Source of the DNA: an uncultured Alphaproteobacteria bacterium
GTDB taxonomy: Bacteria; Pseudomonadota; Alphaproteobacteria; Micavibrionales; Micavibrionaceae
Length of the DNA: 64,000 bases
Reading direction: 5' to 3'
Assembly (NCBI GenBank): GCA_963799275.1
Contig: CAWCWJ010000001.1
Coordinates: 197,071 to 261,070 of the forward strand
Positions 976-20,306 of the stretch are shown here, one piece after another. Within the stretch, counting starts at the first letter, position 1. Every line of letters begins with the position of its first letter. The translations under genes were made by a program, and so were the position numbers. The notes below the pieces were generated by a model. It was not told where the DNA came from and did no database searches. It worked only from the letters and a program-made list of their open reading frames with translations.

Positions 976-1281
976 ATGATTAAATTTATTTATTTTTCAA
1001 TGGCTGTGGTTGTCTTTTCTTTTTTGATTGTTCCTTTTTTTAATGGAATATCTGCCGAACGCAATAAAATTAACATCCGCCCTTTGCAATTTTCTGATAA
1101 TCAAGCGCCATCACAAAATGAATTAACATTTGATGAAATTTACGCCTTGGCTAATGAAGAAAGTTTTGACCCGCAAAGCTTGAATAATATTGCCCCAGCG
1201 GCAGGAAATGAACAAACGGATATTTCGTATCCTAATGATTTTTCAAATCAAATCGAACGTGCGCCTCATCCAGCACTTTAA
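976..1281 (+). CDS. hypothetical small exported protein
   Basis: 101-aa ORF with an N-terminal hydrophobic signal-like segment (FSMAVVVFSFLIVPFFNGISA). I recognise no family. Confidence 0.4.
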   Translation: MIKFIYFSMAVVVFSFLIVPFFNGISAERNKINIRPLQFSDNQAPSQNELTFDEIYALANEESFDPQSLNNIAPAAGNEQTDISYPNDFSNQIERAPHPAL

Positions 1282-1287
1282 CATTAT

Positions 1288-1944
1288 TTAAGCCAATGCG
1301 GGAGCTGGAGCGGTAACTGTTGGGCTAGAATCTGATCTTTCCAAATCTGAGGAAGAATAACTGTATCGAATTGTACCAATAATACTATCTATTTTTTGTT
1401 CTACTCCCTCAATACCGATGCTATTCACCGCCGCGCCCACCTCTTGCTGAGCTTCGCCGACAGACTTATTTACAAGAGCATCATATTTATCTTTATGAAC
1501 ATGCAAGGGGCCCGCCCCATCATTATCGCTTCCATTACCTTTTTCAAACAAACTTGCTGGTGGTTGAGTAATAACTAGAACACCGCCATCGGGTGCCGCA
1601 ATTGTATACACCTCAACTGTAATTCCCCCTACTCTACCCTGTTCAAAATCAATACCAGGAGCCGCCGCATTTCCTTGACCATCAACAGCACCATCCAAGG
1701 TCCTAATACCTGATTTTAAAGAATTTATATCCTCTATAATATTTCGCATACTACCACGAAATATACGAGTAGGATCTAAACCACCCCCTAGAACAGCATC
1801 CATTGCTGTGCTTTTAACAACGCCACCAACATCAAGTTGATGATTAGGATCACCATGTTGTAATTGATTAATAATTTTAGAAGCGGTTTCGTTTAAACCA
1901 AGTGAAGTAGCTCCTCGTGCAATAAGATTGCTTAACTGAGTCAT
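1288..1944 (-). CDS. hypothetical protein
   Basis: 218-aa Gly/Ala/Ser-rich ORF with no recognisable motif. It is the only long ORF in this interval. Confidence 0.5.
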   Translation of the reverse strand: MTQLSNLIARGATSLGLNETASKIINQLQHGDPNHQLDVGGVVKSTAMDAVLGGGLDPTRIFRGSMRNIIEDINSLKSGIRTLDGAVDGQGNAAAPGIDFEQGRVGGITVEVYTIAAPDGGVLVITQPPASLFEKGNGSDNDGAGPLHVHKDKYDALVNKSVGEAQQEVGAAVNSIGIEGVEQKIDSIIGTIRYSYSSSDLERSDSSPTVTAPAPALA

Positions 1945-2014
1945 ATAAGTTTCTCCCTAATCATAATGATAATGTACCAGATAAAGGTTATTTTTTTATT
2001 AACATAATATAATT

Positions 2015-3223
2015 CTACAACATTTTAGGCAATAAAATCCAATATTGTCCTTTTGATTTCATTTGCCCTGCCATTTGTTCGGCATTTTTTCCATACCCCC
2101 AAAAGAAATCCCCCCGCACAGGGCCACGTATCGCTCCACCCGTATCTTGGGTAACCATCAAACGGTTGAGCATGGGCGCGGTAGCATTAGGATGCGCGGC
2201 ACTTAACCAAACAGGCGCACCATAGGGGATAAGCGAGCGATCAATCGCCAAAGATCGCAGGGGTGTCAACGCTACCCCTTGCCCACCAATTGGACCTTCG
2301 CCTTTAATTTCGCGAAAGAATACATAGGATTTATTGGTCGTCATAATCTCACGCGCTTGGGATGGGTTTGCCGCCAACCATGCCCGAATGGATTGCATTG
2401 AAACATTTTCTTTTGTCAAATGCCCCCGCTTTATCAACTCTTTACCAATCGCATAATAGGGATGACCATTTTGCCCCGCATACCCGACCCGCATGGTTGT
2501 TCCATCGGTTAAGGTTACAACGCCCGACCCCTGAATTTGTAGGAAAAAAGCATCAACCGCATCATTAACATAAACCAAAGGTTTATCTTGCGCGGGGGGC
2601 AATTTTCCATCAATAATTTGGGCATGGGTTTCATAGGGTTTTAAATTACCGCCCACAATACGCCCTGCGATACGCTGGCCTTTTAATTCTTCCCTAAAAT
2701 CACCCAATTGTACCATGACCAAATCATCGGGACGCATCCGCAAAGGGATTTGATATTGACCCGTTTTAACGCGTGATCCACGAAGCCCTGCCTCATAATA
2801 TCCTGTGAATAATCCTTGTGCCTCATCATTGTTTTTAATTTGATAAGGAATAAAATTTTGTTCGAAAAATTGACGCACCGCAATTGCGTTTGTTTGATTA
2901 ATATCGGCAAAACGACGGCACATAATTTGCCATTCTTGTGCCTTACCAAATCGTGGGTTTTTACCGATTAAATTTTGGGAAGGCCGATTTAAAATTGTTG
3001 CACAGCTACGGTTGTATGCCGTTGCAAAATCTATAAAATTCTCATTTTCCCATTGTGGCAAATCACTATATGTGGCAGCAGACAATAATAACTTATCAGA
3101 AATTTCTTCCGTACCCACTTCACTTTTTACAATAGGCTTTGTGTTTGTGTCTTGAGTAGATGTCCCACTACAAGCACTAAGCAAGATTGTTATAACAAAC
3201 GCACCACATAAATTTCTTATCAT
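2015..3223 (-). CDS. mltA: membrane-bound lytic murein transglycosylase A (lipoprotein)
   Basis: MltA/3D-domain signature at the C-terminus (LAIDRSLIPYGAPVWL ... TQDTGGAIRGPVRGDFFWG). I moved the start to Met48 of the tracked ORF (MIRNLCGAFVITILLSAC, lipobox LSAC). That start removes the overlap with the upstream tim44-like gene. Confidence 0.85.
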   Translation of the reverse strand: MIRNLCGAFVITILLSACSGTSTQDTNTKPIVKSEVGTEEISDKLLLSAATYSDLPQWENENFIDFATAYNRSCATILNRPSQNLIGKNPRFGKAQEWQIMCRRFADINQTNAIAVRQFFEQNFIPYQIKNNDEAQGLFTGYYEAGLRGSRVKTGQYQIPLRMRPDDLVMVQLGDFREELKGQRIAGRIVGGNLKPYETHAQIIDGKLPPAQDKPLVYVNDAVDAFFLQIQGSGVVTLTDGTTMRVGYAGQNGHPYYAIGKELIKRGHLTKENVSMQSIRAWLAANPSQAREIMTTNKSYVFFREIKGEGPIGGQGVALTPLRSLAIDRSLIPYGAPVWLSAAHPNATAPMLNRLMVTQDTGGAIRGPVRGDFFWGYGKNAEQMAGQMKSKGQYWILLPKML

Positions 3224-3242
3224 TCTTTTATATATTTTCTTT

Positions 3243-4013
3243 TTATTTTGTTTTACCTGCATCGGGGATGGGTGTTTTATGGTCTTCTTCTTCATCATCG
3301 CGTGTTTCATATAAAAACCATTCTGGCCCAGTGGCATTTTCGGGTTGTCCAAAAACCCATACATCTACCATTTTTGTAATTTTATCGGGCGTGCCTGAAA
3401 TAATTTCACCCTCTTTATCGCGAATGACACAAATCTCGTTCGCATAAAACCGTACTGTGATAAAGAAAATTTCATTTTTGATAAAGGCTTCAACAATATC
3501 CATCCGTTCGATGGATTGCACTTGGGTGGATACAATTTCGCCCTTATCCTCACGCATTTCAATGGCGGATTTAAACCCTTCAAACACTGGCTTATCCAAT
3601 AAATCACTTAATGTTTCCAAATCCCCATTGGCAAATGCCTCAATAATCATGGGAAAGGCATGCTCCGCCCCATTGATAAAATGCCCTAAATCAAAATCGG
3701 GCTTACTAATGGCAATATCATCTAAATTATTTTGTGCGGTTTTATTGTCGAAAAAAACATGGCGCGGCAAAGCCAAATTTTGCCCTGATAATGCATTTAA
3801 TTTAACAATATTATCTTCAAGGCGATTTGATTTTTTAGTTATGGGTGATAAAAAGCTTTCCGCATTTTCACCTTCTGATTTTTGCTCATTTCGTGTTTTA
3901 AAAATTTCTTCACGTTTTTCGTCATCTTCGTCGTCAGTTTGACCCAAAATAGATTTTAACCAAAAAACAAGTCCGGCTGCGATTATGATATATAGAAGAA
4001 GATCGGCGCTCAT
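3243..4013 (-). CDS. Tim44-like domain protein
   Basis: N-terminal TM helix, an acidic linker and a C-terminal Tim44-type domain. It occupies the conserved alphaproteobacterial position between fxsA/secB and mltA. Confidence 0.8.
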   Translation of the reverse strand: MSADLLLYIIIAAGLVFWLKSILGQTDDEDDEKREEIFKTRNEQKSEGENAESFLSPITKKSNRLEDNIVKLNALSGQNLALPRHVFFDNKTAQNNLDDIAISKPDFDLGHFINGAEHAFPMIIEAFANGDLETLSDLLDKPVFEGFKSAIEMREDKGEIVSTQVQSIERMDIVEAFIKNEIFFITVRFYANEICVIRDKEGEIISGTPDKITKMVDVWVFGQPENATGPEWFLYETRDDEEEDHKTPIPDAGKTK

Positions 4014-4067
4014 GAATAACTCTCTTTATTTATTGTTGTAAAATAGTTATAAAGCACCTTTACAACA

Positions 4068-4565
4068 ATGAAAAGAAAAGACGTTTTAAGAATGCCATTT
4101 TTAATTTTATTTATTCTTATCCCAATTGCCGAAGTGTACGCATTTTTAACTGTGGGTGATGAGATTGGTATATTGAACACTTTATTATTATGCATCGTGA
4201 CCGCATTTATTGGTGGTTTTTTGGTAAAACAGCAAGGGGTAGAAACTTTATTCAACGCCCAAAAGAATTTGCAAAGCGGTAAATTACCCATTCAACAGTT
4301 ATTTGATGGGTTTTGCCTTATTATTGCAGGTGCATTGCTATTAACACCAGGTTTTATAACAGATATTGCTGGATTTTTGCTATTACTGCCCCCATTTCGT
4401 CGTTTTCTAAGTCAAAAACTATCAAATTCAGATAGATTTAAGGTTTATACCAAACAAAACACTTCAAAAACCGATGATAATACCATAGAAGGTGATTTTG
4501 AAATTGTTCAAGATACGGTTGAAAATAACCCCGAAACCATAGAGAATACAAAAAACAAAAATTAA
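4068..4565 (+). CDS. fxsA: FxsA family membrane protein
   Basis: Typical FxsA motif LLLTPGFITDIAGFLLLLPPFRR and two N-terminal TM helices. Confidence 0.85.
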   Translation: MKRKDVLRMPFLILFILIPIAEVYAFLTVGDEIGILNTLLLCIVTAFIGGFLVKQQGVETLFNAQKNLQSGKLPIQQLFDGFCLIIAGALLLTPGFITDIAGFLLLLPPFRRFLSQKLSNSDRFKVYTKQNTSKTDDNTIEGDFEIVQDTVENNPETIENTKNKN

Positions 4566-4575
4566 GAGATTACCC

Positions 4576-5124
4576 ATGACTGATACCTCCCCCAATTCCC
4601 CCAATTCCCCCAAAGATATTATTGATAACGATGAAGATATTGGCGAAGTGGCACAAGCCCCCCTTATGATACATAAACAATTTTTAAAAGATTTGTCTTT
4701 TGAAAACCCAAATGCGCCAGAAGTTTTCTTTGGCGAGCAACAACGCCCTGTAATGGATATGAATATCGGAATAGACGTACAGCGTTTGGAAAACGATAAA
4801 CATGATTATTATTATGAAGTTTCCTTGCAGGTAACGGCCAATGCGACCCAAAATGGTAAAGCAATGTTTTTATGTGAAGTAACCTATTCGGCTGTGGTTT
4901 CAATTAATAATATGGATGAAAAACATCATCAAGCGCTACTTTTCGTAGAAGTGCCGCAATTAATTTTCCCTTATGCCCGTCAAATTATATCAAATGTAAG
5001 CCAATCAGGAGCTTTTATGCCCCTTCAACTTGCCCCTGTTGATTTTAGATCTATGTTTATAAAGCGTTTTGGCAAAAACAAGGAAAACACAAAAAATACT
5101 GAAAATACTGAAAATGCAGCTTAA
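4576..5124 (+). CDS. secB: protein-export chaperone SecB
   Basis: SecB core (IHKQFLKDLSFENPNAP ... LFVEVPQLIFPYARQIISNVSQSGAFMPLQLAPVDF). Confidence 0.9.
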   Translation: MTDTSPNSPNSPKDIIDNDEDIGEVAQAPLMIHKQFLKDLSFENPNAPEVFFGEQQRPVMDMNIGIDVQRLENDKHDYYYEVSLQVTANATQNGKAMFLCEVTYSAVVSINNMDEKHHQALLFVEVPQLIFPYARQIISNVSQSGAFMPLQLAPVDFRSMFIKRFGKNKENTKNTENTENAA

Positions 5125-5370
5125 ATTTATAATTTTCTTATTAAATTAAAAGCTTTTTCCTTAAAAACCCCTGTGATAGAATAATAAACAGCTTTATTCA
5201 CAGCTTTACCCCCACATAAAGTTTTGATTGGCGTTTGTATTCTTTGTTATTTTAACAATAATTTCACTTTGCAATGCGCCAATTCTGGCGACATATCAGC
5301 ATAACTCATTATTAACCTTTCACATGTTATTATGTGGGAGGGATATTACGTTTATAAAAGGGGTACGTTC

Positions 5371-8300
5371 ATGACGCACTGGACACAAAACGTTTTCAGC
5401 ATCTTAAACGCTAGAAAAAAACATCACCATTATCAGCCCCTTGTTAAGGAATCGGGGAATGTTTTCTTGATGCTTTTTGGCGCGGTTGCCATGGTGGGTG
5501 TCTTAGGCGCGTCGACCATGACCGTCCTTCGTGGCCCCGTCAAAACCATGTCCGAAGTCACAAAACGCACCTTGGCCGAAAATAATATGATGTCATCGGC
5601 ACGGATTGCTGTGGTTACAGCATCACAAGATGCAACAACATATGATTGTGATACAGATGGTGTTGTTGAACCTGATGCATTTGGTACGGCTATTACTGGT
5701 TTTACAGGGGGGGGAACAATACCCGCCACTATTGGTGTCAGCCGCCAAGACCCATGGGGAAACGAGTATGGATATTGCGTATGGGATCATGGTCCATCAA
5801 TAGATGCGGGGGGTTGTACAGGGGATAATCGCCTTGCAGGAGATAATAGCACAACATCAACTTCATATTCTGTTGCCTTGATATCTGCAGGACCCAATGG
5901 TCAATATGAAGCTGGGTGTTTACCATATGCAGGTAGTCCAGCCAGCCAAATTTCTAGGGGTGGCGATGATATTGTTCATACTTTATCCTATGATGATGCC
6001 GCCAATATCGCAGGTGGATTATGGAGCGAGGAAGGGTCAACGGCAGCTCGAATTTCACGCGATTTAATTGTCGATGATGGTGCATCCACCCCCATTGAAA
6101 CTTTAAATTTTACAGCATCTTCGGGTGATTTTAGCGTTTCTGGCTCTGGTCAATTTCCAGTAATTAATACGGATAATATTCAACCAATTTCCGCGGCAAG
6201 CTTACTTATTAGCGCCCCAACAATTATATCTGGCGATTTAACTGCATCTGGCAATATCTCAGGCGTAAATTTATTGGCGACAGGAACGCTTGATGTTACA
6301 GGCGCTTCATCCCTTGGTATATTAGGCGCAGGCGCGACAACAGTAACAACTTTGAACAGTTCAGGGTTGGCACAGTTAGATTCTTTAAACGTGTTTAATA
6401 ATGCTGATATAGATGGCAATTTGAATGTGGATGGCACACTCACCCTTGCCGATTTAGATGTACCAGGCAACACATCATTAGGGACAACGACTGCACAAGA
6501 AATTGCCCTAAATGGAACAATAACCACCGATATTTTAATAAGTGCAGGTAACTTAACCCTTACATCAGGCAATGCAACAATTGGTGGAACATTGGGTGCA
6601 GGGGCGACAATATTAGATTCCTTAACCGTAACAAATAATTTAACCGTAAATGGAAGTTTAGGCGCTGCATTAAACGCAGGTGGTTTTGGTATTACAAACT
6701 TACTTGACCCTTCCGCCCTTCAAGATGCCGCAACAAAAAGTTATGTTGATACTGAAATTTCTAGTGTCATGTCTGGCGGTGTAACGGAAGATGACCCATT
6801 TGTTGAAGATGTTCTGAACACAGGTGAATTATGTATCGGAAAGACAGGTAACATCGTTGGCTGTGATGTTAGTGCAGTCACTGCCTTTGAAACCGATCCC
6901 ACAATATCAACTTTGGCAAATGATGGAGATGTATGTGTTGTTAGTGGTACACAAATTATTTGTAATGTACCACAAGGAACAATTAGCGCTGGCGCAACTG
7001 GCCTTTGGTCGGATAACACGAATAGTATAAATTATCTAAGCCAATATATTATAAAATCTGGCCAAAACTCAACCACTGCTGGCCTTGATGGTGATGGCAC
7101 ACGCATGTTTTACGACACTAACGAAGGCGCACTTCGTGGTGGTCGTATTTTTGGTGGAAACACTGCTTGGCAGAACACAAATATTGGTAGATATTCATTA
7201 GCATGGGGTTACAATCCTTTAGCCAGCGGTGATAGTGCTACAGCATTAGGGAACAATACGACAGCTAGTGGTAATAATTCTACAGCTATGGGGTCAAATA
7301 CAACAGCTAGTGGTATTAGTTCTACAGCTTTGGGAGGTTTTGCAACTGCAAGTGGCAATAATTCCGTAGCTTTGGGACGAGCTACAAATGCTAGTGGAAC
7401 TGATTCTATCGCTATGGGTGGTGGTACATTTGCTAGTGGTAATAATTCTACAGCTATAGGAAGTCAATCAACTGCAAGTGGCACTCATTCTGTAGTTATA
7501 GGTCATCAATCAACTGCAAGTGGGTTCAGCTCAACTAGTTTTGGATATAGAGTAATAGCAGGATCAGGAGTACCACAACCTTTTGGTGGTAATTCGGGCG
7601 TTGGTAATTATTCTGTCGCTTTTGGATTAGGTAACTCTTCATTTACATTACCTCCTCGTGTTTCTGGTAATGAAAGTTTTGGAATTTTCTTTGGTGACCA
7701 ATCAGGGGAAGACATCACCGCAACGAATGTTCTGGCGTTAGAAGGAGGCTCACTCCTCCTCTCTAACGATTCAGGAACCGCGTGTGCGGCGGATAAACAA
7801 GGAGCCTTACGCCTTAACGCAACCGCAGACGGCCTTGAAATGTGCGATGGTGCAGGAACATGGACATCCACCTTCACAGGTGGCGGGGCCAGCGGTGGTG
7901 TGATTGCATTAAACGACCTAACAGATGTTTTATTTGACACAACAACTGATTATGATGGGGACACGTTGGATGATGATGATAATTTGTTTATTGGAATTAC
8001 CGCCGCCGCGTTAACAACAGGTAATCAAAATATAGTTATTGGCGCAACATCTGGTAATAATATTACAGAAGCCAATGGCGGTGTTATTATTGGTGCAGAT
8101 GCGGGTCGCTTACTTACTACGGGTAATGATAATACATTTATAGGGCAAGAAGCAGGTGAATTAACCACAACAGGGGAATTTAATACTTTTATTGGAAATG
8201 ACGCAGGTAAAAATAACAGTACAGGTTCATACAATGATTTTTTTGGTAAAAGCTCAGGTAGAGATAATACAACAGGAATACAAAACACCTTTTTAGGTAT

Positions 8301-9609
8301 CAGTAGTGGTACAAGTAATACGACAGGTAATCGTAATGTTTATATAGGTAATAGAGCAGGCCGAAATCTAACAGCGGGAGTTGATAATGTTATTGTTGGT
8401 CAATCTGCTGGGGAACAAACAACCAATGCTAGTCAATCTGTTTTTATCGGTCACCGATCAGGGATTAGTGCGGGTTCAAGAAACGCATTTGTTGGTTGGT
8501 ATTCAGGTAGAAATATAAGCGGCACGGGAAATATTGCAATGGGTGAAAATTCCGCAGGCAATGTTTCTAACGGGTCTGATAATGTTTTTCTTGGGTCTAA
8601 TGTTGCAGCATCATTATCATCTGGTGATAAAAATATTTACATTGGTAGTGATGTTGATTCATCTGCTGCAACGGTATCCGAAGAATTAAATATTGGGGAT
8701 CTAATTAAGGGTGATATCGGTACAACATCAACCGACCCCCGCATCGGCGCGCCAAAATATTGCGATGAAAATCTAGCCAATTGCTTTATCGCTACGGATG
8801 TTTCTAGCAATAATGCTGGCGGCGCAGACACGCAAATTCAATTTAACAATATTGGCGTATTGGATGGCGATGCGGCCTTCATATGGGATTCAACCAATGA
8901 TATTTTGGATGTGAATGGATCAATCAATGCACAAACACGCATAACCTTGGGCCAAACCACGGGCGCCGCCGCACCAACATACCCTAGCCCCGCAGATTTA
9001 TGGAGTAACGGTACTGGCGATGATATTTATTATAACACTGGCACCACACCACAAGTTGGTATCGGGACAACAACACCTGCTGAAGCCCTTGACGTTGTTG
9101 GGAACATTCAATATTCAGGAATTTTGGTTGATGCGTCCGACCGCCGATTGAAAGAGAATATCACCCCCCTTGATAACAAGACAATTTTATCGCGGATTGA
9201 ACAAATCGATACCTATTCATTCACCATGATTGGGGATGACAAAAAACAGATGGAGTTTGGTGTTATTGCCCAAGAATTGGAAAAAATATTCCCCGAATTG
9301 GTAACCGTTGCGAATGACGTAATGAAAACCCGACATGTTAATTATGTTGGCTTTATCGCGCCCTTAATTGAATCAACCAAGCAATTAAAAATAGAAAATG
9401 ATACTTTAAAGAACGAACTTTCCACCCTAAAAAACAATCAAGAACAAATCTTACAAGATATGGCAAAAATAAAATCTATAATGGGTATAAATTCAGCAAA
9501 GGGCGCAAAATTTAATTCTTATTTATTATTACTCTCATTAATAATTGGTGGTGGGATAATGGTTGCCTTTTCACGTCAACAAAAAGTTATTAGCGGTAAG
9601 GAAGTTTAA
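5371..9609 (+). CDS. giant surface fibre protein: pseudopilin-like N-terminus, YadA-like head repeats, tail-fibre-type G-x-x-N-x-F-I-G repeats, C-terminal peptidase S74 intramolecular chaperone domain
   Basis: Start chosen at the ATG at 5371, preceded by AAGGGG; the tracked ORF begins at 5332. N-terminal hydrophobic helix NVFLMLFGAVAMVGVLGAS. GspG-like motifs DPWGNEYGY, SAGPNG and GGDDI. Hep_Hag-like NSTAMGSNTTASG repeats. A phage-fibre motif ITNLLDPSALQDAATKSYVD. An S74 motif SDRRLKENITPL ... EFGVIAQELEKIFPELV. A coiled coil and a C-terminal TM helix. Confidence 0.75.
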   Translation: MTHWTQNVFSILNARKKHHHYQPLVKESGNVFLMLFGAVAMVGVLGASTMTVLRGPVKTMSEVTKRTLAENNMMSSARIAVVTASQDATTYDCDTDGVVEPDAFGTAITGFTGGGTIPATIGVSRQDPWGNEYGYCVWDHGPSIDAGGCTGDNRLAGDNSTTSTSYSVALISAGPNGQYEAGCLPYAGSPASQISRGGDDIVHTLSYDDAANIAGGLWSEEGSTAARISRDLIVDDGASTPIETLNFTASSGDFSVSGSGQFPVINTDNIQPISAASLLISAPTIISGDLTASGNISGVNLLATGTLDVTGASSLGILGAGATTVTTLNSSGLAQLDSLNVFNNADIDGNLNVDGTLTLADLDVPGNTSLGTTTAQEIALNGTITTDILISAGNLTLTSGNATIGGTLGAGATILDSLTVTNNLTVNGSLGAALNAGGFGITNLLDPSALQDAATKSYVDTEISSVMSGGVTEDDPFVEDVLNTGELCIGKTGNIVGCDVSAVTAFETDPTISTLANDGDVCVVSGTQIICNVPQGTISAGATGLWSDNTNSINYLSQYIIKSGQNSTTAGLDGDGTRMFYDTNEGALRGGRIFGGNTAWQNTNIGRYSLAWGYNPLASGDSATALGNNTTASGNNSTAMGSNTTASGISSTALGGFATASGNNSVALGRATNASGTDSIAMGGGTFASGNNSTAIGSQSTASGTHSVVIGHQSTASGFSSTSFGYRVIAGSGVPQPFGGNSGVGNYSVAFGLGNSSFTLPPRVSGNESFGIFFGDQSGEDITATNVLALEGGSLLLSNDSGTACAADKQGALRLNATADGLEMCDGAGTWTSTFTGGGASGGVIALNDLTDVLFDTTTDYDGDTLDDDDNLFIGITAAALTTGNQNIVIGATSGNNITEANGGVIIGADAGRLLTTGNDNTFIGQEAGELTTTGEFNTFIGNDAGKNNSTGSYNDFFGKSSGRDNTTGIQNTFLGISSGTSNTTGNRNVYIGNRAGRNLTAGVDNVIVGQSAGEQTTNASQSVFIGHRSGISAGSRNAFVGWYSGRNISGTGNIAMGENSAGNVSNGSDNVFLGSNVAASLSSGDKNIYIGSDVDSSAATVSEELNIGDLIKGDIGTTSTDPRIGAPKYCDENLANCFIATDVSSNNAGGADTQIQFNNIGVLDGDAAFIWDSTNDILDVNGSINAQTRITLGQTTGAAAPTYPSPADLWSNGTGDDIYYNTGTTPQVGIGTTTPAEALDVVGNIQYSGILVDASDRRLKENITPLDNKTILSRIEQIDTYSFTMIGDDKKQMEFGVIAQELEKIFPELVTVANDVMKTRHVNYVGFIAPLIESTKQLKIENDTLKNELSTLKNNQEQILQDMAKIKSIMGINSAKGAKFNSYLLLLSLIIGGGIMVAFSRQQKVISGKEV

Positions 9610-9614
9610 TTTAA

Positions 9615-11273
9615 ATGAGATACCGCCTTATCCTTTATTTTTTAACGATTTCTTTTGTGATGATAATATCATCTAACGCGCATGCCTGCATCAACCCTGC
9701 GGGATCAGCGGGTGAGTCAATTTACAATAAAGATTACAGCGTAATGCAATATTGCGACGGCACCAATTGGGTCGGGATGAGCGATGTTGAAACAGGGCTA
9801 GTCGGTCATTGGCGACTAGATGAAACCAGCGGCACAACTGTAGTTGACAGTTCAAAAAATTCTTATACAGGTACAATGATAAATGGTTTAGATGCCGCCA
9901 ACAGCAATATAACTGGCCCTATTAATACAGCCCTTAGTTTTGATGGAATAGATGATCAAATTTCTGTATTTGATGGATGGTTACATTTTGAAAAAAATTT
10001 TACTGTTAGTTTTTGGATTTACATTAAAGATCCAGGAGCCAGAACAATGGATATATTGGGCACCTATACGGGATCAGGCGGAAATAATTTACATTTTGGT
10101 GTAAATGGGCACTTCGAAAGAATTTATTTAAGTATGCATGGTGGTTTTGGGATACAACATCAAGATACAAACGAGCTTTATAATCAATGGCATCATTTTG
10201 TATTTACCCGAAATGTAAATGGAAATTTAGAAATTTTTAAAAATGGTGTGTCTGTATCAAATAATAGTGCGGGCCCTATCGGTTCATTCATATTAAGCAA
10301 CAATGATAACTTAAATTTCGGGAAGGGCGGCACAGGCAATGTAATATTTAATGGTGGTTTAGATGAAATTCGTATCTATGATCGTATCCTCTCCCCCGCT
10401 GAAATTTCCGCCTTGTATGAATCAGGCCGCGACCGTGGATTGGTTGGCCATTATAAAATGGATGAAACCTCAGGATTGACAGTATTTGACAGTACGGTTT
10501 ATGGTAATAATGGAACAATATTAGGCGGTTCAACAGGTATTTCTTATAGCAATCCATCCCCTACTGGAACAGCAATTGATTTTCCTAATACACCTTCTGA
10601 TAATAGTGGTCGTCGTGTAGAGATACCAAATATTTTCCCTACTGGTCCTTCCTCTCCCTTTACAATTTCAAGTTGGATTAAAAGAGAAGGTTCCTCGCAA
10701 AGCCTTTTTACTAATGGAACTCAATCTACAAAACAATTTTTGATTTTCAGAAATATTAGAATTAGAGATCTTTCTGGTTGGTATGATAGATCCTCAAGTG
10801 CAACTAAAATAAATGATCAGTGGGATCATATTTCTATTGTTTATGATGGGGCTAATATTAAAATTTATAATAGTGGTTTGTTATCTGATAGTCGTTCTCG
10901 AACATTAAATTTAACTGAAACAACATTTCTATTTGGTAGTACAGGCGGTGCATTTGGAGAAGGTGGTGCTGATTTTGATGATGTACGACTATATAATCGT
11001 GCACTTTCTGATGATGAAATCCAATCAATTTATCAACAACGTTTCAAAAGCTGTACTTCCCCCGATGGGCACGAAGGGGACACAATTTATAATAATACCA
11101 ATAATGTAATGCAGTATTGTAATGGAACATTTTGGGCGGCCATGGGCGCAGCGGGCGATGGCGGTGCAGGGTGCACTGGCCCCATCGGCGCAGCAGGCGA
11201 CCTAATTTATAATGACAGCTTTAATGTAATGCAATATTGCGAAGGCGACACATGGATGGCAATTGGAAAGTAA
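9615..11273 (+). CDS. secreted protein with two LamG/concanavalin-A-like lectin domains flanked by Cys-bracketed modules
   Basis: Signal peptide ending in NAHA. Two Laminin_G_3-type domains (GLVGHWRLDETSG ... LDEIRIYDRILSPAEISALY and GLVGHYKMDETSG ... FDDVRLYNRALSDDEIQSIY). Three copies of C-x2-P-x-G-x2-G-x2-IYN-x4-VMQYC-x-G-T-x-W. Confidence 0.8.
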   Translation: MRYRLILYFLTISFVMIISSNAHACINPAGSAGESIYNKDYSVMQYCDGTNWVGMSDVETGLVGHWRLDETSGTTVVDSSKNSYTGTMINGLDAANSNITGPINTALSFDGIDDQISVFDGWLHFEKNFTVSFWIYIKDPGARTMDILGTYTGSGGNNLHFGVNGHFERIYLSMHGGFGIQHQDTNELYNQWHHFVFTRNVNGNLEIFKNGVSVSNNSAGPIGSFILSNNDNLNFGKGGTGNVIFNGGLDEIRIYDRILSPAEISALYESGRDRGLVGHYKMDETSGLTVFDSTVYGNNGTILGGSTGISYSNPSPTGTAIDFPNTPSDNSGRRVEIPNIFPTGPSSPFTISSWIKREGSSQSLFTNGTQSTKQFLIFRNIRIRDLSGWYDRSSSATKINDQWDHISIVYDGANIKIYNSGLLSDSRSRTLNLTETTFLFGSTGGAFGEGGADFDDVRLYNRALSDDEIQSIYQQRFKSCTSPDGHEGDTIYNNTNNVMQYCNGTFWAAMGAAGDGGAGCTGPIGAAGDLIYNDSFNVMQYCEGDTWMAIGK

Positions 11274-11279
11274 TAAAAT

Positions 11280-13763
11280 ATGTTAAAAAACAAAAATAAC
11301 TTTAAAAGGTCTTTTACGATGTCAAAAAAAATTCAAATATTTTTATTTGCTTTCACTCTCATGTTTGGTGCGCAAAACGCACACGCCCAATGTACCAGCC
11401 CCGCATCAAATGAAGGTGGCATTGATTACAGCACAACCATCAATGACCTAATCGTTTGCGACGGCACAAATTGGCAAACCGCAGGGTACACTGGCGGTGG
11501 AAGTGGACTATTCACCGACAACACAACCCACATTACTCGCTCAGACTTTCATATCATAAATAGTGGCCAAACATCAACCACTGCTGCCCTTGATGGTGAT
11601 GGCACACGCATGTTTTATGATCCCAATAAAGGCGCATTGAGAGGGGGGTCTATAACTAGTGGTAATGATAGATGGCAAAATTCTAATATTGGTTCAGAGT
11701 CGTTCGCTTGGGGTTGGAATGTAGAGGCTAGTGGTAATAGTTCTACAGCTATAGGTCGTTCTGTGATTGCAACCGGCTTTAACTCGATGGCTTTTGGCAA
11801 CGATATACAAGTTGGAACTGGTACGGCACAAACGGTAGATACAAATGCTGGCGAGGGAAATTATTCTATTGCCTATGGTTTGGGTGATGCGTCAACATCT
11901 ACTAAACCCCGAGTAACTGGTAATGAAACAGCTGCGTTTTTCTTTGGTGATCAACAAGGTGAAAATATCACTGCAACAAATGTTCTGGCGTTAGAAGGTG
12001 GCTCACTCCTTCTCTCCAACGATTCAGGAACCGCCTGTGCAGCGAATAAACAAGGAGCCTTACGCCTTAACACAACCGCAGACGGCCTTGAAATGTGTGA
12101 TGGCGCAGGAACTTGGACATCCACCTTCACAGGTGGCGGTGCTGGCGGTGGTGCAATCGCCATTAATGATTTAACGGATGCCTATACCGATTACACCACA
12201 GATTTTAACCTGTTTATGGGTCAAAATGCTGGTAGTTCAATTGCAGCAGGCGCGGCAAATAACATTGCTATTGGTATAAATTCTGCTTCTAATCTTACTA
12301 CAGGAGGTGATAATATTGCCATAGGTAATAATGCAATGGCATCTACCACAACAGGTGGTGGTAATACAATTATTGGTCATGATTCCATGACAACTGGAAA
12401 TGGTTTTGCAAATACTGCACTCGGGGTGCGTACATTAAAATTATCAACAGGGGCTTTAAACACTGCTATTGGTGATTCAGCGTTGGAATCTTCTACAACT
12501 GCAAGTGGAAATACCGCTCTGGGCTTTCACGCAGCAAGATTAATAGATAGTGGCGCAAATGTGTCGATTGGTGTGCGAACTATGTATAAAATGACCACGG
12601 GATCAGATAATGTAGCGATTGGTGCTTATAATTTTTCAAATGCCATAACAGGTTCCGATAATACTATACTGGGAAGTCGATCTGGAAACAATCTTACATC
12701 TGGGGATGGAAATATCCTCATTGGCAAAGAAGTTCAAACGTCTACAGCTACATCTAATGAAGAATTAAATATCGGTGATTTAATCAAAGGGGATATCGGT
12801 ACAACATCAACCGACCCCCGCATCGGCGCGCCAAAATATTGTGATGAAAATCTTGCCAATTGCTTTATCGCTACGGATGTTTCGGGTGGTATCGGCAGCC
12901 GTATCCAAGATGCGGATAATGATACATATATTGATGTTGATGGTACAGGCGATGGATCAGAAAATACCATTAGAATGGGTTTTGGTGGAACAGATAGACT
13001 TGTATTAAATGGCCCTAATGCAACTTTAAGTGCACGATTATTTTTGCAAACAACAAATGGTTTTAGTGCTGTTTTTAAAGCAACATCACCAGGTTCAGGA
13101 CCATTTTTGTTATTTCAACATAGTGGAATAGATGTAGAATCAGGCATACTTGGTTTCCCGCGGGAGGCAGGTGCAGGCGATAGTGCATTTGCAGTATCAA
13201 CTGGTAATAATGGTGTTCTGGCTGAACATTTACGCGTTACATCCGATGGAGACGTTGGCATTGGGACACTAACCCCAACAGAAAGTCTGCATGTTAATGG
13301 CAATGTACTTGCTGATGCTTATTTTCATACCTCTGATAAAAATTTGAAGAATGATATAGAGCTTGTAAAAGGTCTTGATCTTATTAATAAATTGCGCGGT
13401 GTTACCTTTACTTTTAAAGAGGATAATCGTGAAAGTGCAGGAATTATCGCGCAAGATGTTCAAAAAGTACTTCCCCGCGCGGTCAAGGAAAATACAGGCG
13501 GGTTCCTAACCGTTGATTATAACCAGCTTTTTGCACCGATTATTGAAGCGATTAAAGATCTTCATAAAATGGTGATGGATTTAACAAAAAATATACAATC
13601 AATCTTTGATAAGGTAAGCGCATTAGAAAGTGAAAATGCTAATTTGAAAAATGAAGTTCATATATTAAAAAAACAAAATCAGGATATTATGAAACGTCTT
13701 GATGCGCTCGAAACATTACCGCAAACTTCATCTTCTGACATCACCGCGCAAGGCGCTACATAA
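11280..13763 (+). CDS. surface fibre protein 2 with C-terminal peptidase S74 intramolecular chaperone domain
   Basis: Sec signal (FAFTLMFGAQNAHA), a Cys module, head-type repeats and an S74 domain (SDKNLKNDIELV ... AGIIAQDVQKVLPRAV ... VDYNQLFAPIIEAIKDL), followed by a coiled coil. Several blocks are near-identical to 5371-9609. The alternative start is the ATG at 11319. Confidence 0.75.
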   Translation: MLKNKNNFKRSFTMSKKIQIFLFAFTLMFGAQNAHAQCTSPASNEGGIDYSTTINDLIVCDGTNWQTAGYTGGGSGLFTDNTTHITRSDFHIINSGQTSTTAALDGDGTRMFYDPNKGALRGGSITSGNDRWQNSNIGSESFAWGWNVEASGNSSTAIGRSVIATGFNSMAFGNDIQVGTGTAQTVDTNAGEGNYSIAYGLGDASTSTKPRVTGNETAAFFFGDQQGENITATNVLALEGGSLLLSNDSGTACAANKQGALRLNTTADGLEMCDGAGTWTSTFTGGGAGGGAIAINDLTDAYTDYTTDFNLFMGQNAGSSIAAGAANNIAIGINSASNLTTGGDNIAIGNNAMASTTTGGGNTIIGHDSMTTGNGFANTALGVRTLKLSTGALNTAIGDSALESSTTASGNTALGFHAARLIDSGANVSIGVRTMYKMTTGSDNVAIGAYNFSNAITGSDNTILGSRSGNNLTSGDGNILIGKEVQTSTATSNEELNIGDLIKGDIGTTSTDPRIGAPKYCDENLANCFIATDVSGGIGSRIQDADNDTYIDVDGTGDGSENTIRMGFGGTDRLVLNGPNATLSARLFLQTTNGFSAVFKATSPGSGPFLLFQHSGIDVESGILGFPREAGAGDSAFAVSTGNNGVLAEHLRVTSDGDVGIGTLTPTESLHVNGNVLADAYFHTSDKNLKNDIELVKGLDLINKLRGVTFTFKEDNRESAGIIAQDVQKVLPRAVKENTGGFLTVDYNQLFAPIIEAIKDLHKMVMDLTKNIQSIFDKVSALESENANLKNEVHILKKQNQDIMKRLDALETLPQTSSSDITAQGAT

Positions 13764-13782
13764 ATAAGGAAATTAAAATATC

Positions 13783-15942
13783 ATGAAATATTTTCTTCCT
13801 ATTTTATTAGTGGCGATTGTAAGCGGATCTTCTATTGCTTTGACAGCGGATAGTTATCGCGTGCCATCCAAAGGCGGACAAGTTTATATTGAGGAGCATT
13901 CGGTTTGTAAACAAGTCACCAACAATTCGCCCGATAATGATCTCTTCGTCCCCACTCGTACCCCCGCCGAATGGCATACAGGCGGCGAGTCTTTCGTCGA
14001 AAACACGCCCTCTATTGCAAATATAATAGATAATTGTAATTCTGGGACATTAAATCTAGAGGGGGTGACGAGAAATTATCTTGATGGGGCAAGCTCTGTC
14101 ACGGTGTCGGGTAATTTTGCCTATGTCGCAAGCCTTGGTACCGATAGCTTGACCATCATCGATATCTCTAACCCCGCCGCCCCCACACAAACAGGCACCA
14201 TCTCTAATGCCAATCTTGATGGTGCTTTCTCTGTCACGGTGTCGGGTAATTATGCCTATGTCGCAAGCCTTAATGCCAATAGCTTGACCATCATCAATAT
14301 CTCTAACCCCGCCGCCCCCACACAAACAGGCACCATCTCTAATGCCAATCTTGATGGGGCAAGATCTGTCACGGTGTCGGGTAATTATGCCTATGTCGCG
14401 AGCAATATTGCCGATAGCTTGACCATCATCGATATTTCTAACCCCGCCGCCCCCACACAAACAGGCACCATCTCTAATGCCAATCTTGATGGGGCAAGCT
14501 CTGTCATGGTGTCGGGTAATTTTGCCTATGTTGCAAGCTCTACTGCCGATAGCTTGACCATCATCGATATCTCTAACCCCGCCACCCCCATACAAACAGG
14601 CACCATCTCTAATGCCAATCTTGATGCGGCTTACTCTGTCACGGTGTCAGGTAATTATGCCTATGTCACAAGCTTTAATGCCGATAGCTTGACTATCATC
14701 GATATCTCTAACCCCGCCGCCCCCACACAAACAGGCACCATCTCTAATGCCAATCTTGATGGTGCTTTCTCTGTCACGGTGTCGGGTAATTATGCCTATG
14801 TCGCAAGCCTTGGTGCCGATAGCTTGACCATCATCGACATATTTAACCCCGCCGCCCCCACACAAACAGGCACCATTTCTAATGCCAATCTTAATGCGCC
14901 TTACTCTGTCACGGTGTCGGGTAATTATGCCTATGTCGCAAGCTCTACTGCCGATAGCTTGACCATCATCGATATCTCTAACCCCGCCGCCCCCACACAA
15001 ACAGGCACCATCTCTAATGTCAATCTTGATGGGGCTTACTCTGTCACGGTGTCGGGTAATTATGCCTATGTCGCAAGCCTTGTTGCCGATAGCTTGACCA
15101 TCATCGATATCTCAAACCCCGCCGCCCCCACACAAACAGGCACCATCTCTAATACCAATCTTAATGGGGCAAGATCTGTCACGGTGTCGGGTAATTTTGC
15201 CTATGTCGCAAGCGTTTATGCCGATAGCTTGACCATCATCGATATCTCTAACCCCTCCGCCCCCACACAAACAGGCACCATTTCTAATGCCAATCTTAAT
15301 GGGGCAAGCTCTGTCACGGTGTCGGGTAATTTTGCCTATGTTGCAAGCTCTACTGCCGATAGCTTGACCATCATCGATATCTCTAACCCTGCCGCCCCCA
15401 CACAAACAGGCACCATCTCTAATGCCAATTTTGATGGGGCAAGCTCTGTCACGGTGTCGGGTAATTATGCCTATGTCGCAAGCTTTAATGCCAATAGCTT
15501 GACCATCATCGATATCTCTAACCCCGCCGCCCCCACACAAACAGGCACCATCTCTAATGCCAATCTTAATGGGGCAAGATCTGTCACGGTGTCGGGTAAT
15601 TTTGCCTATGTCGCAAGCGTTAATGCCGATAGCTTGACCATCATCGATATCTCTAACCCCGCCGCCCCCATACAAACAGGCACCATCTCTAATGCCAATC
15701 TTAATGGGGCTTTCTCTGTCACGGTGTCGGGTAATTATGCCTATGTCGCAAGCTTTCTTGCCAATAGCTTGACCATCATCGATATCTCTAACCCCGCCGC
15801 CCCCACACAAACAGGCACCATCTCTAATGCCAATCTTAGTAATGCGCGCTCTGTCACGGTGTCGGGTAATTTTGCCTATGTCGCGAGCTCTACTGCCGAT
15901 AGCTTGACCATAATTAATCTCTCCTGCACGTTCGGTTGCTAA
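13783..15942 (+). CDS. secreted LVIVD-repeat beta-propeller protein (14 repeats)
   Basis: Signal peptide, then 14 copies of a 45-aa unit (SVTVSGNYAYVAS..ADSLTIIDISNPAAPTQTGTISNANLDGA) that matches the LVIVD repeat pattern. Confidence 0.85.
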   Translation: MKYFLPILLVAIVSGSSIALTADSYRVPSKGGQVYIEEHSVCKQVTNNSPDNDLFVPTRTPAEWHTGGESFVENTPSIANIIDNCNSGTLNLEGVTRNYLDGASSVTVSGNFAYVASLGTDSLTIIDISNPAAPTQTGTISNANLDGAFSVTVSGNYAYVASLNANSLTIINISNPAAPTQTGTISNANLDGARSVTVSGNYAYVASNIADSLTIIDISNPAAPTQTGTISNANLDGASSVMVSGNFAYVASSTADSLTIIDISNPATPIQTGTISNANLDAAYSVTVSGNYAYVTSFNADSLTIIDISNPAAPTQTGTISNANLDGAFSVTVSGNYAYVASLGADSLTIIDIFNPAAPTQTGTISNANLNAPYSVTVSGNYAYVASSTADSLTIIDISNPAAPTQTGTISNVNLDGAYSVTVSGNYAYVASLVADSLTIIDISNPAAPTQTGTISNTNLNGARSVTVSGNFAYVASVYADSLTIIDISNPSAPTQTGTISNANLNGASSVTVSGNFAYVASSTADSLTIIDISNPAAPTQTGTISNANFDGASSVTVSGNYAYVASFNANSLTIIDISNPAAPTQTGTISNANLNGARSVTVSGNFAYVASVNADSLTIIDISNPAAPIQTGTISNANLNGAFSVTVSGNYAYVASFLANSLTIIDISNPAAPTQTGTISNANLSNARSVTVSGNFAYVASSTADSLTIINLSCTFGC
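14080..15929 (+). repeat. tandem array, about 13.7 x 135 bp, in-frame coding repeats
   Basis: The string acggtgtcgggtaat recurs with an exact 135-nt period (14101, 14236, ...). Units are near-identical at the DNA level. Confidence 0.95.
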
Positions 15943-16640
15943 ATACCACTCTTCCATAATGCTGCATCACCTAACGCTCCAACCATTTTTTCATGGGCCT
16001 GCGCTTCATCATTGCTCACCTTAAAATTTCGTGGTTCGCGATAGGGTCTGTCCGATGGGATAATATCCAAACTAATCCTCGATGATTGACTGCCGCTTCC
16101 CTCTCCCATTGCCAAACCGCGTTGCCGACCACCCAATAACTCAAGATATACTTCGGCCAATAATTCAGAATCGAGCAACGCGCCATGTAAAGTCCGTGAT
16201 GTATTATCAATCCCAAAACGGCGGCAGAGCGCATCCAGATTGGCAGGGCTACCCGGAAATTTCTTCCGCGCCATGGGCAGGGTATCAATCACCCGCCTTG
16301 GGTCTATAGAAGGAAAGCCAAACATTTTTAATTCCGCATTTATAAATTTCATATCAAATTCGGCATTATGTGCGATTAACTTCGCCTCTGTACCGATAAA
16401 ATCAACAAAATCGCCAACCACTTCACCAAAGGTAGGCTCGTTTTTTAAGCGTTCATTATCAAGGCCATGCACCGCGACCACTTCGGCGGGGACATCGCGT
16501 TCAGGATTTATATATTGGTGATAGGTACGCCCCGTTGGCATATGATTTTCAAGCTCGATACAGCCCATTTCAACAAGGCGATGGCCTTCGAAAGGATCAA
16601 TCCCTGTTGTTTCAGTATCAAAAACAATTTCACGACCCAT
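15939..16640 (-). CDS. dnaQ: DNA polymerase III epsilon subunit (3'-5' exonuclease)
   Basis: Exo motifs VFDTETTG and HNAEFD, plus HGALLDSELLAEVY. Confidence 0.92.
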   Translation of the reverse strand: MGREIVFDTETTGIDPFEGHRLVEMGCIELENHMPTGRTYHQYINPERDVPAEVVAVHGLDNERLKNEPTFGEVVGDFVDFIGTEAKLIAHNAEFDMKFINAELKMFGFPSIDPRRVIDTLPMARKKFPGSPANLDALCRRFGIDNTSRTLHGALLDSELLAEVYLELLGGRQRGLAMGEGSGSQSSRISLDIIPSDRPYREPRNFKVSNDEAQAHEKMVGALGDAALWKSGI

Positions 16641-18735: not shown

Positions 18736-19325
18736 AGGGTATTTTCCTTATCTAAAAAAGCGATCAATTTAAGCAATGGTATCCCCATAATTGTAAAAAA
18801 ATCGCCATTAATTTCTTTAAATAATCGCGCACCCCTAAATTCAATGGCATACCCACCAACGCAATGTAGCGCATCATCCGCACATAGAGAAAGATACTTT
18901 TTAATATCATTGTGCGTTAGTTTTTTCATGGTCATGTTTGCAATATCAAAATCTGACCATAAAATTTTTCCGTTTTTAATAACACTCACCCCTGAAATAA
19001 GCGCATGGGTTTGATTTTGCATTGCGGATAGTTTATCAAAGGCTTGTTCCAGATTTTCTGATTTTGAAAAAATTTTATTTTCGAAAATTAAAATTTGGTC
19101 TGAACCAATAATATAGCTATTCTTCTTATCTTGCACTGCCAATGCTTTTTCTTGGCTTAACCGCATCGCAATTTCTTCATAAGAAATATTATCCATTTGC
19201 AATTTTTTAATAATGAATTGTTCATCAATATTGGTTGGATGAACGTCAAAATCATATCCAACATTTTTTAACAATTTTTGTCGTGCCTTTGATGCCGATG
19301 CTAAAATGATTTTATGTTTAAACAT
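18732..19325 (-). CDS. maf: Maf-like nucleoside triphosphate pyrophosphatase
   Basis: ILASASKARQKLL at the N-terminus and GGYAIE near the C-terminus. Start set at MFKHK (19325), just after the stop of the upstream gene. Confidence 0.85.
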   Translation of the reverse strand: MFKHKIILASASKARQKLLKNVGYDFDVHPTNIDEQFIIKKLQMDNISYEEIAMRLSQEKALAVQDKKNSYIIGSDQILIFENKIFSKSENLEQAFDKLSAMQNQTHALISGVSVIKNGKILWSDFDIANMTMKKLTHNDIKKYLSLCADDALHCVGGYAIEFRGARLFKEINGDFFTIMGIPLLKLIAFLDKENTL

Positions 19326-20211: not shown

Positions 20212-20306
20212 AACATCATTCTATCAAGGGTGGCGCATAAGAAAAGAAGCGATTATCGCCCGCTTATTTTTATTCAAAATGTTTATTCAAACCTATTTCG
20301 TATCAA

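Follow-up and report, generated by a model that had tools for sequence, protein, structure and literature searches.

A probable mosaic-trimer fibre locus resident at the secB–dnaQ junction of Micavibrio-like Alphaproteobacteria

The closest described kind of system to the locus reported here is that of the mosaic adhesive trimer (MAT) fibres of Bdellovibrio bacteriovorus, which are chromosomally encoded, surface-displayed, trimeric and mosaic, with S74 or other tips, and for which experiments have demonstrated both the self-cleavage of S74 and the display at the surface (Caulton et al. 2024, PMC10769870). Table S3 of that work already lists a Micavibrio S74-like MAT, MICA_2368, of 654 amino acids (aa) (PMC10769870). 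The locus under study consists of four genes lying between secB and dnaQ on contig CAWCWJ010000001.1 of an uncultured alphaproteobacterium of the Micavibrionaceae, of which a stretch of 64,000 nucleotides, called the window below, was analysed. In our judgement it is likely to be a chromosomal, non-phage adhesion module of the MAT kind, kept at the secB–dnaQ junction throughout the Micavibrio-like clade, and we infer that it serves adhesion to other cells or surfaces, possibly prey. The original prediction, made from the letters of the window, had been unable to name a described system with this gene set; the MAT fibres, with their S74 and non-S74 subfamilies, supply one (PMC10769870).

The resemblance to the MATs lies in chromosomal, non-phage, exported bacterial fibres with phage-like shafts and swappable tips, in a C-terminal S74 chaperone-protease with an SDxxxK motif, and in the presence of multiple paralogues that evolve as mosaics. 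By the published description, MATs start with a signal peptide and a beta-rich N-domain of ~130 aa, whereas the first fibre of our locus starts with a hydrophobic helix that looks retained and a head of ~200 aa that belongs to a separate family. Furthermore, the main text on the MATs mentions no transmembrane segment, whereas the S74 chaperone of this fibre appears to be membrane-tethered, and the same paper reports no LamG or LVIVD partner genes, no Cys-bracketed motif of the kind described below (the Cmotif) and no fixed chromosomal site. The head anchor, the membrane-tethered chaperone, the Cmotif partner code with its LamG and LVIVD payloads and the fixed clade-wide site are thus what is new relative to the MATs. 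Phage fibres, the eukaryotic protein MYRF, PilV and the minor pilins, and the trimeric autotransporters each share one module with the locus and fail membership as a whole.

Four plus-strand open reading frames (ORFs) fill the secB–dnaQ interval, at 5332-9609, 9615-11273, 11280-13763 and 13783-15942, and encode 1425, 552, 827 and 719 aa respectively. The coordinates first proposed for them are correct, and so are the gaps of 5, 6 and 19 nt, which hold for the longest ORFs. Database gene calls (P0003, 1412 aa, for gene 1 and P0001, 814 aa, for gene 3) together with sequences resembling ribosome-binding sites (RBS) place the probable start of gene 1 at ATG 5371 and possibly that of gene 3 at ATG 11319, in which case the gap between genes 2 and 3 would be 45 nt. 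The genes and their immediate flanks are the following.

4576 to 5124, plus strand: secB, left flank (Pfam SecB, 2.8e-43).
5371 to 9609, plus strand: fibre 1 (F1), within the ORF from 5332, with head, YadA_head and Peptidase_S74.
9615 to 11273, plus strand: secreted double-LamG protein, with signal peptide, Cmotif, two Laminin_G_3 domains and two more Cmotifs.
11319 to 13763, plus strand: fibre 2 (F2), within the ORF from 11280 (Pfam Peptidase_S74, 2.9e-14).
13783 to 15942, plus strand: secreted LVIVD beta-propeller protein (Pfam LVIVD, PF08309, 7e-155, 14 stretches).
15939 to 16640, minus strand: dnaQ, right flank, convergent with the LVIVD gene (Pfam RNase_T, 6.6e-36).

The LVIVD gene and the convergent dnaQ overlap at their stops by 4 nt. 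Pfam searches recovered the domain content that had been read from the letters, namely S74 in genes 1 and 3, two LamG domains in gene 2 and 14 LVIVD stretches in gene 4. An export signal had likewise been claimed for all four products, and inspection by eye, the one method applied to this point, agrees with it: gene 1 shows a basic leader and a 20-residue hydrophobic helix, and genes 2, 3 and 4 show candidate signal peptides ending in ...SSNAHA/C, ...AQNAHA/Q and ...IALTA/D (the slash marking the cleavage site). The RBS-like sequences of genes 2 and 4 sit inside or just past the preceding gene, a placement that is compatible with coupled expression of the four genes and is no proof of it; transcription as a single operon is plausible. 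At the three gene junctions no plus-strand terminator-like site was found, both plus-strand matches lying inside the LamG gene. Terminator-like matches as a whole are slightly above the shuffle mean, nearly all of them being minus-strand copies within the LVIVD repeat, and promoter-like matches in the window are at chance level.

F1 carries, in this order, a head, a shaft, YadA-like head repeats, a connector, a second shaft, a tip, the S74 chaperone, a coiled coil and a C-terminal membrane helix. The parts on which the argument depends are these.

5371 to 6081, plus strand: head domain of F1, ~240 aa, the N-terminus that defines the family.
7177 to 7683, plus strand: YadA-head-like repeats in F1 (Pfam YadA_head, 3.9e-23).
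9136 to 9306, plus strand: S74 intramolecular-chaperone/autoprotease domain of F1 (Pfam Peptidase_S74, 3.6e-16).
9520 to 9570, plus strand: C-terminal hydrophobic helix YLLLLSLIIGGGIMVAF, then a basic tail SRQQKVISGKEV (hydropathy scan).

Peptidase_S74 (PF13884) scores 59.6 bits in F1 and 53.5 bits in F2, against a gathering cut-off of 22. The Ser-Lys motif of F1, S1269-D-R-R-L-K1274 (SDRRLK), is encoded at 9136-9153 and that of F2, SDKNLK (aa 685-690), at 13332-13349, and both align to the cleavage motif of MYRF. Indeed, the best match of the F1 S74 region among PDB sequences is the ICA domain of MYRF (7dc3, E 3.2e-10, with the cleavage motif aligned), and phage fibre chaperones come next. 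MYRF is a transcription factor in which self-cleavage, dependent on trimerisation, releases the N-terminal part from its membrane anchor. F1 shares with it the succession of a cargo, an S74/ICA domain, a helical stretch and a single membrane helix, and differs from it in being bacterial, in lacking a DNA-binding domain and in having an extracytoplasmic fibre as cargo. By hydropathy scan, a C-terminal helix of this type is present in 16 of the 31 complete proteins of the loci that combine the head with S74 and in 27 of 53 S74-bearing representatives, while F2 has none. In the case of F1 the helix would tether the S74 chaperone to the membrane, and we infer a precursor anchored at both ends with its fibre in the periplasm.

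The YadA-head-type repeats in the middle of F1 match the heads of the trimeric adhesins BpaC, Hep_Hag, EibD, YadA and CbpF among PDB sequences, and relatives carry the name "trimeric autotransporter adhesin" in some database sources. F1 could accordingly be a trimeric autotransporter adhesin of type Vc with the other three genes as unrelated neighbours, a reading to which we give next to no credence: the termini are entirely unlike those of YadA, BpaC and EibD, Pfam detects no YadA_anchor beta-barrel, the C-terminus consists of S74, a coiled coil and a single hydrophobic helix, NCBIfam YadA_autotrans reaches 24.5 bits against a cut-off of 750, and the neighbouring genes are tied to head fibres by fusions and by conserved gene order.

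The position of the locus was examined by a metagenome scan with the DnaQ of the window, which returned 80 loci at 54-72% identity, 64 of them informative. In 59 of these 64 alphaproteobacterial loci secB and dnaQ are direct neighbours, separated by -7 to 136 bp, so that the two genes do normally adjoin, as had been supposed. Comparison of the interval among relatives shows it to be usually empty, yet occupied throughout the clade of the window. An LVIVD ORF next to dnaQ is also present in the metagenome locus whose DnaQ is most similar to that of the window (72% identity). In a sister genome (L001, metagenome-assembled genome MFD03250.bin.3.33) the same four genes stand in the same place; compared with the proteins of the window, its flanks are 68-90% identical, its LamG protein 95% and its LVIVD protein 43.5%, and its fibres are mosaic. 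A more distant relative has a single gene of 391 aa, barely more than the head of gene 1, between secB and dnaQ. Altogether, head genes adjoin secB and/or dnaQ in 19 further Micavibrio-like loci, in arrangements that range from a head-only gene up to multi-gene arrays. Because head-family genes sit there in all these loci, the 391-aa head-only gene included, the locus is an old, clade-wide and hypervariable resident of the secB–dnaQ junction. The picture of an island wedged in between the two genes is therefore right as to where the genes lie and wrong as to a recent insertion.

The flanks of the locus are made of housekeeping genes, with Tim44, FxsA and SecB to the left and RNase_T (DnaQ), GATase, CoaE and further housekeeping genes to the right as identified by Pfam. 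A decayed prophage, tailocin or contractile-injection remnant, left with receptor-binding fibre genes that have no current cellular role, would account for the S74 domain and shaft segments, which match PHROG tail-fibre families at E 1e-10 to 1e-27 and ~1,100 phage records at 26-35% identity. As in the S74 tail spikes and fibres of phages (endosialidase of the K1F type, T5, T4-like), the domain follows a repetitive fibre and carries the Ser-Lys motif. Against a remnant stand the four ORFs, all intact, the retention of the gene set at the same site in the sister genome, where the flanks are ~80% identical, and the clade-wide occupation of that site. Genes 2 and 3 match phage proteins at just 26-35% identity and over partial length. 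The N-terminus of F1 is not of phage type: tblastn of the head found no match in 50,697 phage records, and its sole relative among 2.9 million IMG/VR contigs, L087, is ICE-like (integrative and conjugative element) or plasmid-like and not phage. Every product carries a Sec-type or membrane-anchor signal, unlike phage virion proteins, and F1 has a membrane helix past its chaperone. Moreover, no virion module accompanies the fibres; the flanks hold no integrase, capsid, terminase, tube, sheath or baseplate gene, no tRNA occurs anywhere in the 64-kb window, nor any Rfam match, and no direct or inverted repeat of at least 9 nt joins the two locus boundaries, all of which agrees with the absences claimed beforehand. 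A remnant is thus very improbable, and the statement that the locus is not a prophage holds. Of the original view of a domesticated surface-fibre apparatus, its non-prophage nature and the co-occurrence of its parts elsewhere (the same four genes in the sister genome, LVIVD and LamG fused to head proteins) stand, while the fresh island and the want of a described relative do not.

The head of F1 begins with a basic leader and an invariant Gly (aa 42). Next come the hydrophobic helix, 20 residues long (5458-5517), then an amphipathic helix and, last, a beta domain in which DCDxDG, DPWGNEYGYCVWDHG (5749-5793), ISAGPNG (5872-5901) and GDDI are the motifs. Across the family the conserved order is basic leader, invariant Gly, hydrophobic helix, Gly-Pro, amphipathic helix and DCDxDG, then the motifs DPWG..YGYCVWDHG, ISAGPD and DD(I/V). 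A profile search of 1.84 billion representative proteins gave 1,096 members (50%-identity clusters); the domain is N-terminal in all 150 members listed, and protein lengths run from 138 to 6,785 aa among 160 proteins. By scanning one genome per species with the head alignment, 125 relatives were confirmed and 79 distinct loci retained. These are nearly all from Alphaproteobacteria, many being labelled Micavibrio and others Pseudobdellovibrionaceae, which is where NCBI taxonomy places Micavibrio, and the family is represented as well in Hyphomicrobium, Stappia, Nitratireductor, Mesorhizobium and Brucella/Falsochrobactrum, which are not predatory. Pfam searches at E up to 10 gave nothing useful on the first shaft, the second shaft, the Cmotif or the N-domain of the LVIVD protein.

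Several individual loci of the head family have arrangements of their own. In L003 (9003-16151), three tandem stand-alone heads of ~314-338 aa, each with a terminal Cys loop, are followed by a separate fibre of 946 aa made of signal peptide, Cmotif and S74, which amounts to F1 in split form; a gene of the flagellar rod type (Flg_bbr_C) lies alongside. On the L087 contig (5634-9885) TraG/VirD4, ArdA and two Fic proteins are encoded, and the gene combining head and S74 adjoins a Hin/Gin-type resolvase-invertase and then a He_PIG/Lcl_C protein, an arrangement that recalls invertase-controlled variation of fibres or pilus tips. In L081, IncI-type genes of a type IVB secretion system (T4BSS) at 953-8105 (TcpQ-like, TraJ-like ATPase, TraI lipoprotein, DotI/IcmL) precede a head protein of 2,389 aa by 2-9 kb, with an ABC1 kinase gene between.

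F1 had been described at the outset as "pseudopilin-headed", which is not established, the head having no Pfam match even at E=10 and no significant Foldseek match in the PDB. Homology of the head with pilins is nevertheless suggestive, and we place it slightly on the favourable side of even. As in the minor pilins and pseudopilins (PilV, CofB/TcpB, GspG-K), a leader and an invariant Gly precede a hydrophobic helix, a long alpha helix and a beta domain; the motifs DPWGN.Y, SAGPDG and DDI recall GspG, and the Cmotif recalls PilV. The Gly (G29 in 239-aa numbering) is invariant, and F at +7 and G at +14 are at least 90% conserved. AlphaFold2 (AF2), run on the relative P0124 with a 58-sequence alignment, predicts a continuous N-terminal helix of 58 residues and a beta sheet, with a predicted local distance difference test score (pLDDT) above 90. 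Aligned by hhalign with the GspG profile, the head gives three colinear local matches, the hydrophobic helix falling in register with the prepilin Gly-1 of GspG (probability 63%, P 7e-5), DPWGN.Y at P 5e-3 and ISAGPDG at P 0.018, and Pfam T2SSG is weakly matched by 2 of 58 head members (E 0.034). Furthermore, an unrelated metagenome contig (L086, 3626-13963) encodes three tandem proteins that combine a canonical type IV prepilin N-terminus (G/FSLIE, PilV-like head) with a long repeat shaft and S74, a triplet that mirrors the head-fibre triplets in L035, L057, L070, L074, L077 and L083. Between the head and these canonical prepilin heads hhalign gave P = 0.045 only, and a literature search found no paper on pilin-S74 or prepilin-tail fibre-S74 fusions. 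The pilin reading gains interest from the published genome of M. aeruginosavorus, which has a type II system annotated without GspC, G, H and K (PMC3189940).

Other results weigh against a pilin head. Glu at +5 occurs in 0 of 139 head sequences, the residue being mostly A, T or M, and the F1 head matches neither N_methyl (PF07963) nor T2SSG at E up to 10. With two AF2 head models, Foldseek against the PDB returned no pilin and nothing significant, the best match being the R2 pyocin spike (E 0.46), and phmmer of the head against PDB sequences returned noise only. An equally possible reading of the hydrophobic segment is a Sec signal peptide that is cleaved off, with a plausible signal-peptidase I site, ...LGA/S, past the helix. 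In the 64-kb window phmmer detected nothing homologous to GspD, E, F, G-K or O of E. coli at E<1e-3, and there is no consistent linkage of pilus or type II secretion system (T2SS) genes to head genes: at the two loci flagged for GspE, L039 and L081, Tad-like (L039) or T4BSS (L081) genes lie some kb off with housekeeping genes between. The extension of F1, a fibre of >1,000 aa with an S74 chaperone, also sets it apart from pilins.

Taken together, the missing Pfam pilin match, the missing Glu, the two AF2 models that find no pilin, the possible signal-peptidase site and the lack of pilus or T2SS genes in the window favour an explanation in which the fibres are the same and the head is not pilin-like, consisting of a Sec signal peptide or anchor and a novel base of ~200 aa that binds a component of the cell envelope, with export by a non-pilus route. 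The Bdellovibrio MAT fibres have an unrelated N-terminal domain that has been proposed to act as such a base, and for it likewise no PDB homologue is found (PMC10769870). However, hydrophobic residues conserved at 90% or more would be unusual for a signal peptide in a family that is 30-50% identical overall, and neither the colinear GspG matches with their prepilin-Gly register, nor the continuous predicted helix followed by a beta sheet, nor the canonical prepilin-S74 fibres of the same architecture and triplet arrangement sit easily with it. We regard this explanation as tenable, short of an even chance. Export of the fibres by a pilus-type route via the head is for us a tentative possibility, more readily doubted than accepted. 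In its fullest form the pilin reading makes the head a divergent pseudopilin without Glu5, in effect "tail fibres on a pilin", homotrimeric or, in the tandem paralogue triplets, heterotrimeric, whose three N-terminal helices would be the tip or primer of a filament of the T2SS or type IV pilus type; we consider this rather unlikely. CofB and TcpB are homotrimeric tip pilins. If the full form were true, an alphaproteobacterial clade could push folded phage-type fibres through a secretin, with their maturation governed by a membrane-tethered S74 chaperone, by the same logic as eukaryotic MYRF, of which it could be the prokaryotic prototype.

What marks the secreted partner proteins is the Cmotif, a 28-aa Cys-bracketed motif, C..P.G..G...YN.....MQYCDGT.W, which opens the mature LamG protein and mature F2 and recurs twice at the C-terminus of the LamG protein, its copies in the latter lying at 9687-9770, 11052-11135 and 11172-11255. 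Between these, the two Laminin_G_3 domains (PF13385) reach 2.4e-38 and 132 bits against a cut-off of 27.6. The LamG protein was also matched by NCBIfam TafC, a fimbrial protein (44.7 against 410 bits); this was set aside as similarity of LamG domains to a subunit of an archaeal Tat fimbria. F2 consists of signal peptide, Cmotif (11391-11474), shaft, a junction shared with F1, tip, S74 domain and coiled coil. A gene for a signal peptide and Cmotif lies directly downstream of 10 of 14 membrane-tethered S74 head fibres and of 0 of 14 untethered ones (hypergeometric P = 7.6e-5). In several proteins the Cmotif comes directly after the head, at about residue 300, and therefore the sequences suggest that it is a head-proximal connector. 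Elsewhere the payloads are fused to the head itself, as head, LVIVD and LamG (L047, L061), head and LVIVD (L030, L054) or head and LamG (L073). In L015 the order is signal peptide, Cmotif, LVIVD, Cmotif and Cmotif, the same frame as in the LamG protein of the window, and therefore the two payloads are interchangeable. The LVIVD protein shares its N-domain with small proteins whose genes lie downstream of head fibres in L020 and L068.

The same Cmotif is present in PilV, the pilus-tip adhesin of IncI1 (aa 351-375; L085, 20844-22268; sequence from the IncI1 plasmid pESBL-EA11), at what we take to be its constant/variable boundary. This invites the idea that the fibres are chiefly adhesins for mating pairs or target cells in the transfer of DNA or effectors, like IncI1 PilV, instead of general or prey adhesins. 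Consistent with it, the head-S74 gene of L087 lies on an ICE/plasmid-like contig beside a resolvase/invertase and TraG, the head gene of L081 is a few kb from IncI-type T4BSS genes, and Pfam Shufflon_N is matched by 2 of 58 head-family members (8.9e-15). The Shufflon_N matches lie mainly in C-terminal extensions and not in the shared head as a whole, and a link to the head on that ground was rejected. Contexts of this sort, however, are found in just two of ~80 loci; the locus of the window and its 19 relatives are chromosomal, stand between housekeeping genes and have no transfer genes nearby. We consider a main role in transfer improbable.

Diversification of the locus can be followed at two levels, the blades of the propeller and the exchange of a larger cassette. 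The LVIVD protein comprises a signal peptide, an N-domain of ~75 aa, 14 blades and a CTFGC end, and its DNA at 14078-15911 is a tandem array with a unit of 135 bp, for which Tandem Repeats Finder gives 13.6 copies at 91% matches. Among the 13 full blades, identity is 92% for DNA and 86% for protein. At blade codons 5, 19 and 20 (of 45) there are 196 nonsynonymous and 0 synonymous pairwise differences, against 297 nonsynonymous and 189 synonymous ones at the other 42 codons. The blades are homogenised save for these three hypervariable codons, which would map, by general propeller topology, to the D-A and B-C loops of one face of the propeller. The array is compositionally foreign, with 50% GC and a GC skew of -0.23, compared with 36% GC in the sister gene and ~38% GC with positive skew in neighbouring genes on the same strand. 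The features of the larger exchange are given here.

8666 to 11693, plus strand: 3,028-bp cassette that runs from the F1 tip, S74 and membrane helix through the complete LamG gene into the 5' end of F2 (blastn).
8680 to 8805, plus strand: 42-aa junction EELNIGDLIKGDIG...CFIATDVS in F1, with an identical F2 copy at 12759-12884.

This cassette shares 94.7% DNA identity with the sister genome L001, compared with 76-82% for the housekeeping flanks. Its left edge is the 42-aa junction (EELNIGDLIKGD...CFIATDVS), which is identical in F1 and F2, and the two fibre genes share DNA segments that are 80-83% identical. The segment gives the impression of having passed between lineages as a cassette, by exchange at a conserved splice point, and the junction is probably a recombination site for the swapping of tips. 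Indeed, the head, S74, LamG, LVIVD and Cmotif modules are recombined or fused in many combinations in related genomes.

For the adhesion module of the MAT kind that we favour, the following course may be proposed. F1 would be anchored in the inner membrane by both of its ends (N-in, C-in), leaving ~1,300 aa on the periplasmic side. Its membrane-tethered S74 domains would bring three chains into register and nucleate folding of the trimer from the C-terminus, and self-cleavage at Ser1269 would then free the folded fibre tip from the C-terminal anchor, as in phage tail spikes and MYRF. After cleavage the fibre would stay held by the N-terminal head helices, the head mediating its retention and its display at the cell surface; how the head would do so is a tentative best guess, in which it acts as a Glu5-less pseudopilin or minor pilin of a type II secretion or type IV pilus-like machine. 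The LamG protein, F2 and the propeller would join this structure through connectors, which would be the Cmotif for the LamG protein and F2 and the N-domain for the propeller. Binding specificity would arise from the two fibre tips, the LamG domains and the three hypervariable loop positions of each blade, and its diversity from cassette exchange at conserved junctions and from homogenisation of repeats with focal diversification. Some points tell against this course. Trimer formation and self-cleavage of F1 and F2, their surface location and their expression are predicted from sequence; that the LamG, F2 and LVIVD proteins dock onto F1 is a supposition drawn from gene order and domain fusions; the analysis showed no route by which the fibre would cross the outer membrane; and to call the source organism a predator is to extrapolate from relatives that carry the Micavibrio label.

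With these reservations, the locus offers a concrete and testable answer to the question of how bacteria anchor and export phage-type trimeric fibres, in a second predator-rich lineage. It adds a head family of ~1,100 clusters with pilin-like features, an S74 domain that would be membrane-tethered and a downstream Cmotif partner code, and the fixed position between secB and dnaQ makes it easy to find and to compare across genomes. Its tips, LamG units and propeller loops vary and the anchor is kept, the behaviour of a natural specificity cassette, which could support the prediction or engineering of the prey or surface range of Micavibrio-like bacteria. It could also inform the domestication of phage receptor-binding modules and the origin of the self-cleaving membrane tether of MYRF.

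The rest of the window yielded some minor observations. The minus-strand gene leuS is spread over two overlapping ORFs, one at 44590-45861 for the N-terminal 423 aa and one at 43281-44624 for the C-terminal 447 aa, which suggests a frameshift in an essential gene; an indel of the assembly is the likeliest cause and a real frameshift is possible. If it is an assembly indel, the per-base accuracy of the contig is therefore to be taken with caution. Sizeable minus-strand ORFs without Pfam match lie at 30746-32329, 23019-23651, 1288-1944 and 40361-41329, and the first of them, of 527 aa, overlaps the extended 5' end of the mnmE ORF. The count of DnaA-box matches in the window, 25 against an expected 22.6, shows no enrichment. 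The region at 19318-38411 is a classical origin-proximal neighbourhood of Alphaproteobacteria, with the gene order Kinase-PPPase, two DUF6782 paralogues, hemE, hemH, rho, mnmE, gidA, parA and parB, and holA, leuS, a porin gene and hslU lie beyond parB. The fibre locus stands within ~10-20 kb of the place, beside hemE, at which Caulobacter-type origins are located.

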